Made by a program: the position numbers and the translations under genes
The notes under the pieces: generated by a model
The model's database searches: none
Told to the model about the DNA's origin: nothing
The model's input: only the letters and a program-made list of their open reading frames with translations
Assembly: GCF_038025025.1 (NCBI RefSeq)
Contig: NW_027117338.1
Span: 434,001 to 498,000, forward strand
Length of the DNA: 64,000 nt
From: Phyllosticta citribraziliensis
Lineage: Eukaryota
Reading direction: 5' to 3'
Part shown: in pieces, positions 9,218 to 12,287 of the stretch
How positions within the stretch are numbered: the stretch's first letter is position 1
Layout: each line of letters starts with the position of its first letter

Positions 9218-9829
9218 TCAGCCGTCACCAGCCTGAGCGCATACCGCCTGCAGCTGCTTGAGTGTCTCGACGGTTGCTTGACCGAGCTCCTCTCCAGCGG
9301 CAGGCTTGGGGAATTTTCCATAGCGGAGATCGCTCAGATCATCGACCGTCTTCTTGACATCGCCAAGTATCGCCTGTGCTTCTTCTTCAATCTCGCCAAT
9401 CTCCGTGTTCAAGTCGTCTTCAGCTTCCTTCATGTCTTGTAGGAGGTCCTCAATGGTTCTCTTCCCATGTCGGCGCGTAAACGCTGCATCGAGAGGTCCG
9501 TACAGGTCCTCGTCCATTTGGACGTCCAAGCGCTCGTCTGGCGTGAGCCCCGCCTCTTCCAATTCTCCCCTCTCCTCCTTTCTTCGACGCTTGGCCACCT
9601 GGCGCGCCTGCTGCTCGCCGCGCTTAGCCTCGCCGGCAATGGAGCGCTTCACATCATCAATGTCGGTGGCGCGTTGGTGCTGCAGCTCGCGATAAAGCCG
9701 CGGGATGGCAGGATTGGAGGCTTGCGAGCGCGGGAAGAGGTCGATGAATTGCTGGAGTGTGATGACGTTGGTCAGAGGAGCGGGTCGCAGGAGAAGGTCG
9801 GAGAGGATGGAGGTTTCGGTGTGCGGCAT
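9218..9829 (-). CDS. Cnl2/NKP2-family kinetochore protein, single exon
   Basis: 'MPHTETSILSDLLLRPAPLTNVITLQQFIDLFP...LYRELQHQR' N-terminus, and a coiled-coil C-terminus with 'LSDLRYGKF'. Confidence 0.75.
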   Translation of the reverse strand: MPHTETSILSDLLLRPAPLTNVITLQQFIDLFPRSQASNPAIPRLYRELQHQRATDIDDVKRSIAGEAKRGEQQARQVAKRRRKEERGELEEAGLTPDERLDVQMDEDLYGPLDAAFTRRHGKRTIEDLLQDMKEAEDDLNTEIGEIEEEAQAILGDVKKTVDDLSDLRYGKFPKPAAGEELGQATVETLKQLQAVCAQAGDG

Positions 9830-10174: not shown

Positions 10175-12287
10175 ATGGCGCCTTCGTCCCAACCCTACTT
10201 TCAAAAGGACGAGAAGGCCTTGTGCTTCCATCACGAACTCCTGTATGAAGCAAAGGTCCTGGACGTCAAGCAGGTAGACCCGAGCGACAAAAAGTCGGCA
10301 TATCAGTACAAGGTCCACTACAAGGGCTGGAAAGCCACGTGAGTTGATGCGCCCTCTCCCTCAAGCCACCCTTGGTTCACTTCTGTCGTTGGCGAGTGCG
10401 CAGCACTTTGTCATGATCCCATCATCATTCACCTCTCGCGCCATCGCAAGAGCGTCCGCCGTCCACTTCGCCGGGCGCAAGTCATTTCGCTCGGGAAAAG
10501 AATTTTCATTGATTGCACCCATCTGCGCAAGCGCGAGCGTGCCAACAACTGACGGGGCTCACTTGATAGATGGGACGACTGGGTCCCGCAGGACCGGTTG
10601 CGCAAACTGACGGACGAGAATCGCGAGCTGGCAGCAAGTCTGCGCAAGGAGATGGAGGCCATTCGGCGCAGCAGCACTGCGGCTAAGGGCGCGTCTTCTG
10701 CGCACAAGAAGAAGGTGACGGACATGAGCTCCATGCGCGGCAGCGAGGGTCGCGAGACGCCCGCTGGCTCGACCAGCCTGGCTGGCCGTAAGAGGGGACG
10801 CGACTTTGAGATTGAAAAGGTATGAGGCTTTCCCATTCTCCTTGCACGTGATTTATACTCTTCACTTGCTTTCACTTCACTCTGTCGTCTGCGTTGTTGT
10901 TTTGTTGCTCTTGGGGCTCTGCCTCCATCTCTCTCGTCAATTACTCCTCTACACCTCTCAAACCTTCAACATCCCTTCACCCTCTACACAAATTCACTGC
11001 GTCGTTCTTGTCCGTCACTTCGCCTTCCAAACTCTTCCACCCATCATGGTTTCCACGCGAGCCAAAACAAAAGCCACGACAGAGACTGGAGCAAAGGTCA
11101 AGTCTCTGGGCCTTCACGATGCCGCCAGCTTGGAGACTCGTGTCAAAGTGTCCGATTGCAAGAATCCCGCTCCAGAGGTCCTGGGTTCTGACAAGTCGAC
11201 CACCTCGGAACGGACGCTTGAGGGACTTTCGCAAAACGGACCTCGACCGCCAAAGGGGCTGAAGCTCGCCTGCGCACATCCTACGCAGCCGTACGCCAAG
11301 GTCCTTGAAAATTGGGCAAGGGACACTGCCATCCAAGTCGAGCCTCCGCGCAAGCAGCCGCCCAGGAAAAAACCTGCCAAGAAGAAGATGACCGGCAAGG
11401 GCAAGCGTGTTAGATTTGAAGAGTCTGAGGAGCCCGAGGTGCCTTCCGGACCCCCCAAAGGAGTGAAAAGAGCCAAAACGACCACGACTGCTGAGGAAGC
11501 CCACACGAGAGTCCTCCAGAACTGGAACACGAAGCCTCGGACTCCCCACACAGTACTGCTTTCTTGCACCTGCGTTGCTTATCTGCCGTTTCTTGACTGT
11601 TTTTGCTTGTTGAGATTGACATTGAGCTCTGGCTAACATGATGCACAGGAGGAGCAATTCCGCACCAGACCGGCTGTCCGCATCCCAATGCCCGACAAGC
11701 TCAAGTCTGTGCTCGTTGATGACTGGGAGCAAATCACCAAGAACCTCCATCTCACCAAAGTTCCTAGCTTGTGTTCTGTCTCGACGGTCCTCTCCCAGTA
11801 CGAAACTCAAGAGAGGACCAAGCGCATTCCCGGCAGCGCCGACTGGGACATTCTGCAAGAGGTGATGCAGGGCATCAAGGAGTACTTTAGAAAGGCTCTG
11901 GGCCGCATCCTGCTGTACCGCTTTGAGCGTGACCAGTACTTGGAAGTGCACAAGAAGATGGAATCTCCAAACTCTCCGGGATATACGGGCCGCAGCCTGG
12001 AACAGATCTACGGGCCGGAGCATCTCCTGCGCCTGCTGGGTAAGCGTCTTGTCCAAGCACAATTACTCATCGAGCTGCGACAAGGCTGACAGTGGGCAGT
12101 TTCATTACCCGATCTGATTGCACAGACCAACATGGACCCTCAGTCGGTCAACCGGCTGCGCGAGGAACTGCTCAAGCTCACCATGTGGATCGCCAAAGAC
12201 GAAAACGCCAACAGGTTCTTCCGCAACAACTACGAGCCGGCCGACCAGGAGTACATTGAGAAGGCCAAGGGCGACGAGAAGCACTGA
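10175..12287 (+). CDS. EAF3: Chromatin modification protein Eaf3/MRG15 (chromodomain + MRG domain), 4 exons (~10175-10338, 10569-10819, 11649-12039, 12100-12287)
   Basis: Chromo-barrel 'LCFHHELLYEAKVLD...[23 protein letters not shown]'. MRG domain 'LKSVLVDDWEQITK...LGRILLYRFERDQY...IYGPEHLLRL...LPDLIAQTNMD'. Confidence 0.93.
11046..11552 (+). other. Putative alternative first exon of EAF3 nested in intron 2 (169 codons, Lys/Pro-rich)
   Basis: Good Kozak context CCATCATGG after a CT-rich leader, an open frame, and a phase-0 donor ACA|GTACTG at 11553 that would join the 11648 acceptor in frame with the MRG exon. Confidence 0.55.

Follow-up and report, generated by a model that had tools for sequence, protein, structure and literature searches.

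A probable hidden coding exon in intron 2 of EAF3 from Phyllosticta citribraziliensis and the chromodomain-less MRG isoform that it may encode

The gene EAF3 of the fungus Phyllosticta citribraziliensis is contained in a stretch of 64,000 nucleotides (nt) of contig NW_027117338.1 (positions 434,001 to 498,000 of the forward strand, assembly GCF_038025025.1), here called the window, in whose numbering all positions are given. Exons 1 and 2 of this gene encode a chromodomain and exons 3 and 4 the MRG domain, and our analysis argues for a real hidden coding exon in the intron between these two parts, whose likeliest product, resting on a predicted splice, is an isoform that lacks the chromodomain. 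That the open reading frame (ORF) in this intron 2 is a selected coding sequence we consider highly probable. For a conditionally used internal start, from which a chromodomain-less MRG isoform with a basic tail would be made that is MRGX-like in function without being an MRGX, the chances appear evenly balanced, and the use of the exact junction 11552^11649 is a more tentative proposal, which we hold to be somewhat less probable.

Intron 2 is bounded by a GTATGA donor and a CAG acceptor and contains the branch point GCTAAC. With 829 nt, it is longer than 37 of 40 orthologous second introns, a set obtained from 80 metagenome EAF3 loci after removal of 13 that lack exon 2, 11 in which the intron is missing or its ends are unresolved, and 8 exact and 8 near duplicates; the other introns of the gene measure 231 and 60 nt. 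The ORF begins with the ATG at 11046 in CCCATCATGG, which is preceded in the intron only by an ATG at 10822 located within the donor, and it extends over 169 codons to an ACA followed by GTACTG at 11553, a phase-0 GT in the frame of exon 3 (with 603 nt from 11046 to 11649). Its frame is open upstream to 10728 and continues for 27 codons past 11553 to a TAA at 11634-11636 within the branch point, resulting in 196 amino acids (aa) if unspliced. This stop is located four codons before exon 3 and is the only one between both frames, while retention of the intron from exon 2 would encounter a stop after a single codon (GTA TGA). The leader upstream of the ORF is free of AG between 10827 and 11059 and contains no CTRAY before 11188. 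The T content drops from 37% in the leader to 14% in the ORF and rises to 40% beyond 11553, and a second phase-0 GT at 11409 (GTTAGA) is closer to the donor consensus than GTACTG. By chance, an ORF of at least 169 codons starting with ATG in the frame of exon 3 was found in 0.07% of 3000 base shuffles and in 1.6% of 3000 second-order Markov simulations, and one of the same length in any sense frame in 0.4% and 4.3% (3000 each). The encoded sequence contains 20% lysine and arginine and 11% proline, with a lysine cluster (KKPAKKK..GKGKRVR) that we take to be a putative nuclear localisation signal. A VL(E/Q)NW motif, possibly a short binding motif, is found twice (11301-11315 and 11511-11525). 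The original prediction had described an intron of about 830 nt with a CT-rich leader, a start at 11046 followed by 169 open codons, an abrupt T-rich turn at a phase-0 GT and an acceptor at 11648 in the same frame, all of which agrees with the sequence, except that the open codons do not end at this GT but run on to the TAA. The features of the intron are as follows.

10827..11045, plus strand: pyrimidine-rich (~72% C+T), AG-free leader, candidate internal promoter and 5' untranslated region, non-coding as judged by codon score and by indels in organism B.
11046..11552, plus strand: highly probable hidden coding exon of 169 codons, basic and proline-rich, defined by the orthologue P0017, codon score, composition and motifs.
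11409..11414, plus strand: second candidate phase-0 donor GTTAGA, which would yield a 313-aa isoform (donor score -1.3, no such joint in the RNA contigs).
11553..11648, plus strand: T-rich tail, predicted from sequence and codon score to be a 96-nt intron of the short isoform (GTACTG; GCTAAC at 11632-11637; CAG at 11646-11648), with the in-frame TAA at 11634-11636.

The coding character of the ORF is reflected in its conservation. When residues 107-302 of the open frame, corresponding to the ORF from its ATG onwards, were used as a query, 363 candidates were scored and one cluster was obtained, P0017, with three members from Logan contigs. P0017 starts with the same MVSTRAK and is collinear with the ORF from end to end, with six whole-codon gaps within residues 1-169 and no stop or frameshift. 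The identity amounts to 52% for residues 1-60, 75% for residues 61-121 and 73% for residues 122-169, the corresponding value for the MRG exons of P0001 and P0002 being 72%. Both copies of VL(E/Q)NW are kept in P0017, and the motif is present in none of the other 101 intron-encoded segments that we have compiled from related genes. At the position of the proposed donor, P0017 has a valine codon (GTN), followed by a stop 26 codons later. By this homology, the sequence encoding P0017 is presumably located in EAF3 intron 2 as well. The upstream extension of another protein (P0019) aligns only patchily with the translated leader. The original prediction had proposed conservation as a check, and the ORF, its start and the GTN codon are indeed kept, although in a single orthologous cluster and with a donor that is still weak.

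For the scoring of codon usage, a model was derived from 64 long ORFs within 259 kb of the same genome. The ORF reaches +0.003 per codon in its own frame (shuffle p 0.003), the five remaining frames lying between -0.14 and -0.34. Elsewhere at the locus, values of +0.22 to +0.47 were obtained for the true exons, of -0.25 for the leader and of -0.67 for the tail. The coding signal ends near 11553. In contigs of a source that we call organism B, the leader shows four single-base indels and the covered part of the ORF none among those listed, a weak comparison resting on one contig of depth 5. A Pfam scan assigned no family to the ORF or to P0017, and the ESM Atlas contained no usable match for P0017. 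Three further candidates were rejected: a translated leader (the frame being open from 10728), in light of its non-coding codon score and the single-base indels in organism B; an antisense frame at 10977-12062 (361 codons), which with a codon score of -0.19 and no Pfam family appears as a shadow of the sense frames; and an origin from a repeat or transposon, as the ORF matches only itself in the genome, within the limits of that search.

Conservation also bears on the proposal that the ORF is the decaying and unused relic of a long isoform with retained intron, as found in other Pezizomycotina, in which case intron reads would originate from pre-mRNA or the excised intron. This would be compatible with an ORF that is closed at both ends, by a stop after the exon 2 donor and one at the branch point, that shows weak codon bias and that lacks the HP..FY..IAG(I/V)P domain present in 51 of 103 intron-encoded segments. 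Loss appears to be common, since 33 of the 40 metagenome introns are shorter than 500 nt, and the contigs of organism B differ by ~4-5% in the ORF compared to ~2% in the exons, with two of three listed ORF changes altering the residue. We nevertheless consider a relic improbable, in light of the six whole-codon indels without any stop or frameshift, the identical start and the 73-75% identity to P0017 in the 3' two-thirds of the ORF, and of the poor alignment of the leader translation, which is unlike that of the ORF.

How the exon would be used is a question of splicing, for which we have inspected contigs of four runs (X1-X4) that were labelled as RNA by guess, yet are spliced at GT..AG. A number of observations weigh against the chromodomain-less isoform. 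Only the three canonical joints of the gene are found in these contigs and neither 11552^11649 nor 11408^11649 is among them, so that the junction of the original prediction was not recovered. Intron 2 is covered in X1 by a contig at 11201-11606 (depth 25 compared to 1212), in X3 by contigs at 10791-11367 and 11397-11595 (depth 5 and 5.5 compared to about 250) and in X4 by contigs at 11212-11381 and 11472-11604 (depth 3.4 and 4 compared to 70); the contigs of X2 contain no such cover. Wherever the listed contigs of X1, X3 and X4 extend to 11553, they continue past it unspliced, to end at 11595-11606 before exon 3. This cover may itself reflect pre-mRNA, since retention of intron 1 is common and one contig of X3 extends from exon 2 into intron 2. 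The donor GTACTG scores -4.6, which is below all 40 orthologous donors and in line with the weakness already suspected in the original prediction, and it carries a T at position +5, where a G is found in 36 of the 40. The T at the same position in P0017 is forced by its Val-Leu codons. Moreover, P0017 shares six of the seven residues just past the proposed donor, and its stop coincides with that of the ORF. A fusion of the ORF to the MRG domain was found neither among the proteins of 166-529 aa retrieved in the ORF search nor in a profile search, in which 8000 candidates of 141-459 aa were scored. Finally, the orthologues of the ORF consist of a single cluster, and its codon score is far below that of the true exons, at the 6th percentile of 116 coding chunks, with 11% of 624 outside-ORF chunks (still including short exons) scoring as high.

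Other observations moderate these arguments. A missing junction is no proof of absence because contigs drop rare forms, and with intron 1 being retained in the same runs, the contigs do no more than lower the probability of the splice 11552^11649. The leader is covered in X3, and although the intron cover of X1 and X4 starts only near 11201-11212, holes in contigs prove nothing. The donor scores rest on 40 donors of other fungi, a few of them perhaps misplaced, as a species-specific model built without annotation provided 16 noisy candidates and was not used. On this scale, the second candidate donor GTTAGA scores -1.3, with three of the 40 orthologous donors at or below this value, and in Neurospora more than 200 variants of GTnnnn donors are reported to be in use (PMC4408805). 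In favour of a splice at 11553, the T content increases from 14% to 40% at this position, where P0017 retains its valine codon. As a separate observation, the contig of X4 ending at 11604 carries 18 loose T letters on the plus strand, which cannot be the poly(A) tail of either strand and which probably correspond to a longer genomic T run in organism B.

The same contigs form the basis of the main rival of the isoform, a nested stand-alone gene, whose unspliced RNA would be transcribed from an internal promoter and translated into a basic protein of 196 aa with a hydrophobic tail, ending at the TAA at 11634-11636 and never joined to MRG. Besides the contigs of three of the four runs that pass 11553 unspliced and end without reaching exon 3, it would explain the very weak donor and why P0017 ends at the same place, with the tails being identical in six of the first seven and seven of the following 17 residues, and it has a parallel in two metagenome loci (L036 and L052), whose long intronic ORFs likewise miss the frame of exon 3. 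We regard it as unlikely, since no part of the locus scores lower in codon usage than the tail (-0.67), which also has the T content of an intron, and since such a T-rich stretch is poor in stops and hydrophobic by composition alone. The contigs also contain no loose poly(A) end, and the ORF shares the frame of exon 3, as do most of its equivalents in other fungi, which run into MRG.

In two further explanations, the ORF would become part of a longer protein. It could act as a cassette exon between exons 2 and 3, encoding a protein composed of chromodomain, insert and MRG domain, as observed in the commonest class of related proteins (55 of 150) and annotated in named genomes, and the leader would provide a long AG-free pyrimidine tract in front of such an exon. 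This appears very unlikely, considering that no CTRAY branch point is found before 11188, that the first three AGs past the leader are in phase 1 and those in phase 0 are GAG or AAG, and that the conserved N-terminal MVSTRAK and an A at position -3 favour use of the ATG. No such joint is present in the RNA contigs and the weak donor would be needed as well. Still less probable, to a degree where we hardly expect it, is a bypass of the TAA at 11634-11636 by readthrough or RNA editing, leading to an unspliced ORF-MRG protein of 393 aa. TAA is the least leaky stop, and its editing requires two edits; to our knowledge, such adenosine-to-inosine (A-to-I) editing is not known in Dothideomycetes, and no contig spans 11606-11649 unspliced. 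Counting in its favour are the shared frame of ORF and exon 3 with one stop between them, a locus (L011) in which stops interrupt intron 2 only close to the acceptor, leaving 332 of 346 codons open, and the A-to-I editing described for Fusarium graminearum during its sexual stage (10.1101/2021.11.08.467853). Neither 'Eaf3' nor 'MRG' is found in the main text of that study or of 10.64898/2026.08.26.747414.

In contrast to its hidden exon, the host gene itself is well-defined. The locus is EAF3, with exon 3 being 100% identical to P0001 (annotated at NCBI as MRG-domain protein of Phyllosticta citribraziliensis), and its product shows both parts of an Eaf3/MRG15 protein, a chromo barrel (PF22732, E 7e-12) together with PF11717 across exons 1-2, and an MRG domain (PF05712, E 2.5e-38) on exon 3. 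MRG matches in its own genome are confined to this one locus. Intron 10339-10569 is seen in the contigs of three of the four runs, and introns 10820-11648 and 12040-12099 in all four. The main spliced product is an ordinary chromo-MRG Eaf3 of 330 aa, encoded as follows.

10175..10338, plus strand: coding part of EAF3 exon 1, first half of the chromodomain (PF22732, PF11717; joint 10338^10570 in three of four runs; matches P0001).
10339..10569, plus strand: intron 1, 231 nt, often retained (GT..AG joint; retained-intron contigs in X1, X3 and X4).
10570..10819, plus strand: EAF3 exon 2, end of the chromodomain and basic linker (..RGRDFEIEK; PF22732 positions 51-77; RNA contigs).
10820..11648, plus strand: intron 2, 829 nt (3n+1; 829-nt joint in all four runs).
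11649..12039, plus strand: EAF3 exon 3, MRG profile positions 10-144 of 190 (PF05712, E 2.5e-38; 100% to P0001; single genomic match).
12040..12099, plus strand: intron 3, 60 nt (joint in all four runs).
12100..12287, plus strand: coding part of EAF3 exon 4, end of the MRG domain and stop TGA (frame, match to P0001, RNA contigs).

Intron 1 splits the chromodomain and is retained in X1 (depth 189 compared to 1212), X3 (64) and the main contig of X4; its retention leads to an immediate stop and would thus be a second possible route to losing full-length Eaf3. Between P0001 and P0002, which are from two Phyllosticta species, the MRG exon is 72% identical compared to 98% for the chromodomain exon and 96% for the linker exon, and a conserved interaction domain would not usually be expected to diverge more strongly than these. 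A Cnl2/NKP2 kinetochore gene (PF09447, E 4e-23) is located head to head with EAF3 at 9218-9829 on the minus strand, with both start codons about 345 nt apart.

The original prediction had considered the isoform as a peculiarity of this fungus. Instead, the exon appears to be one variant of a widespread feature, as intron 2 apparently hides coding sequence in many Pezizomycotina, judging from their open frames, with fusion to MRG as the shared property. Among the best 150 of 1496 exon 3 matches within representatives clustered at 50% identity, 55 join exon 2 to an insert of at least 100 aa that reads through intron 2 (median 260, range 104-743 aa), so that the commonest class keeps the chromodomain with a retained in-frame intron. 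Another 32 carry at least 100 aa before MRG without sequence of exons 1 or 2, and the remainder contains fewer than 100 aa before MRG without these exons (45), the canonical join (8), a short insert (6) or other arrangements (4), classes that describe open frames rather than transcripts or frequencies, since clustering collapses canonical forms and many entries, judged by their ends, look like gene calls reading through the intron. Of the 55 inserts, 52 end in glutamine, as encoded by a CAG acceptor, and 46 have a valine in the first two places, as encoded by a GT donor. The long form is annotated in named genomes (P0056, P0135, P0161, P0168), and 17 of 20 proteins that were looked up carry names (Diatrype, Monosporascus, Verticillium, Apiospora, Colletotrichum, Fusarium, Xylariales, Camillea, Neoarthrinium, Hymenoscyphus, Lepraria, Xylographa, Pyrenula and Capronia). 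In the less biased DNA set of 40 metagenome introns, seven have at least 500 nt and 33 are shorter, with six of the seven holding a sense frame of at least 150 codons. Intron 2 is open from end to end in L037 and L040; in L081, a closed 5' part is followed by 495 codons open into exon 3; in L011 (2083-3120), the frame open from the donor meets a TAA and a TAG close to the acceptor. The same intron of L011 contains tandem SKPKE(S/P)KDLAPSRE-like repeats. In L052 (2191-3000, also L053 and L055), a frame of 269 codons fills an intron of 810 nt, one base out of register with both exons and with the HP..FY..IAG(I/V)P domain inside.

Segments with this domain originate from several fungal classes and comprise 30 of the training set and 21 others (for example in P0114 at ~160-202, L036, L081, P0013 and P0166). 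In 23 EAF3 proteins containing it, no convincing Pfam family was found beyond chromo and MRG, with one sub-threshold BST2 match inside MRG. Its hidden Markov model (HMM) found no match on the window ORF or on P0017 and none above threshold in six frames, and hhalign returned a probability of 0.07%. The sequence HPTQ..WARDTA of the ORF was considered as a degenerate version and rejected after both HMM and profile comparison. With the domain missing, the ORF is thus tied to the widespread insert by position, frame and composition (20% lysine and arginine and 11% proline compared to 15% and 10%) and not by detectable homology. For an alignment (A4) whose first row is P0114 from another species, AlphaFold predicts a two-helix patch at residues 161-190 (10-residue means of 78, 92 and 83), and the structures listed by Foldseek at E <= 0.001 all contain MRG; neither result concerns the window ORF.

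Among 399 methionines of intron-derived segments, seven start a MARxK sequence (P0028, P0045, P0071, P0077, P0084, P0090 and P0170) compared to 0.19 expected from composition, an expectation that ignores the MA bias of true N-termini; MARxK is also found in intron 2 of L063, and three of the carriers are ARIKxT. This excess points to real internal starts in other lineages, and these starts resemble the N-terminus of histone H3. The window ORF and P0017 both start with MVSTRAK and contain no MARxK start. In Verticillium and Hymenoscyphus, models of EAF3 are variously split, fused or chromodomain-less at intron 2 (P0174, P0175, P0177, P0178, P0150; P0114, P0185, P0186), which we read as a sign of annotation pipelines stumbling on a hidden exon. 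Similarly, the Verticillium alfalfae orthologue of Eaf3 described with a chromodomain only (PMC11343894) suggests an annotation effect of this exon, given the Verticillium dahliae models split at intron 2 (P0174 and P0175).

A chromodomain-less MRG protein has a known counterpart in mammalian MRGX (MORF4L2), which is described to have NuA4/TIP60, Sin3B and ASH1L partners in common with MRG15, the two proteins being mutually exclusive (10.1101/2021.08.11.456009). The predicted isoform would resemble it in comprising an MRG domain without an N-terminal chromodomain. In contrast to MRGX, which is a separate gene, it would arise from an internal start in the same gene, as there is one MRG locus and the ORF matches only itself, and relatives of its N-terminal arm were detected in one cluster only (P0017), with its expression being a prediction. 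The long and short isoforms of MRG15 offer a precedent for a single MRG gene tuning histone reading via alternative RNA processing; the former, MRG15-L, is described to insert 39 aa within the chromodomain (10.1101/2021.08.11.456009), whereas in EAF3 the change is located between chromodomain and MRG and would either eliminate the reader or, in other fungi, lengthen the protein by 104-743 aa. The main product of 330 aa corresponds to the canonical Eaf3 of Magnaporthe oryzae, Zymoseptoria tritici and Neurospora crassa. Other fungi with intron 2 open from donor to acceptor (L037 and L040; 55 of 150) fit the definition of an exitron (a coding intron retained in frame) given in PMC10985678, unlike the present locus, whose intron of 829 nt is not a multiple of three (3n+1) and is closed by stops at both ends, being open for one codon from the donor and four codons to the acceptor. 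An exon or isoform from EAF3 intron 2 was not found in titles or the openings of abstracts, a provisional result as subscription journals and supplements were little covered, and the word 'isoform' is absent from the main text of PMC11343894, PMC10553808 and PMC11317574. The intron 2 coding exon belongs to a widespread and apparently undescribed feature of EAF3.

Together, these results suggest a mechanism in which intron 2 of EAF3 would carry a second, selected coding exon. As in an alternative first exon, a conserved start codon is followed by an open frame in register with the downstream exon. Transcription would begin in the pyrimidine-rich leader under conditions not represented in the four runs and translation at the ATG at 11046, and a weak donor in the 3' part of the ORF (11553, leading to 361 aa, or 11409, leading to 313 aa) would be spliced to the regular acceptor at 11648. 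The most economical product would be an MRG protein equipped with a basic arm, since nearly all equivalents run into MRG and the ORF keeps the frame of exon 3. The chromodomain-less isoform of the original prediction is thus compatible with the conserved coding ORF and the many EAF3 loci whose intron 2 frame runs into MRG, but is not accompanied by an observed splice or fused protein. It would retain almost the whole MRG domain and could still enter Rpd3S, NuA4 or Ash1-type complexes, with a disordered arm rich in lysine and arginine replacing the chromodomain that reads methylated lysine 36 of histone H3 (H3K36me). The isoform may compete with full-length Eaf3 and thereby uncouple these complexes from H3K36me or retarget them via its basic arm. 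An engineered Eaf3 without chromodomain is described not to rescue the deletion in M. oryzae and to show reduced occupancy (PMC11343894), from which we infer by analogy that a natural form should act as competitor or retargeting subunit. On a broader scale, and as a tentative view whose chances we place clearly below even, an ancient second coding exon in EAF3 intron 2 of filamentous ascomycetes could serve as a reader switch with three products: the ordinary short Eaf3, a longer one carrying a basic insert plus a small helical domain, and one that lacks the chromodomain because translation begins internally, in some lineages with an H3-tail-like ARxK. In Phyllosticta, the switch would have been rebuilt into a genuine alternative first exon whose weak donor is new, allowing a developmental stage to swap H3K36me reading out of Rpd3S, NuA4 and Ash1 complexes.

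Eaf3 is central to current work on gene silencing in fungi, where it was described to bind Ash1, PRC2 and Sin3 in M. oryzae (PMC11343894), to be required in Z. tritici for the H3K36me3 that depends on Ash1 (PMC10553808) and to define RPD3S in N. crassa (PMC11317574), and these studies appear to treat it as one protein. If a second N-terminus were to exist, deletions of EAF3 would remove several proteins, C-terminal tags would report on a mixture and complementation with a cDNA would restore only one form. It would also account for the inconsistent gene models of EAF3, which are split, long or chromodomain-less, and it would offer a simple system in fungi to study the role of an MRG protein without chromodomain.

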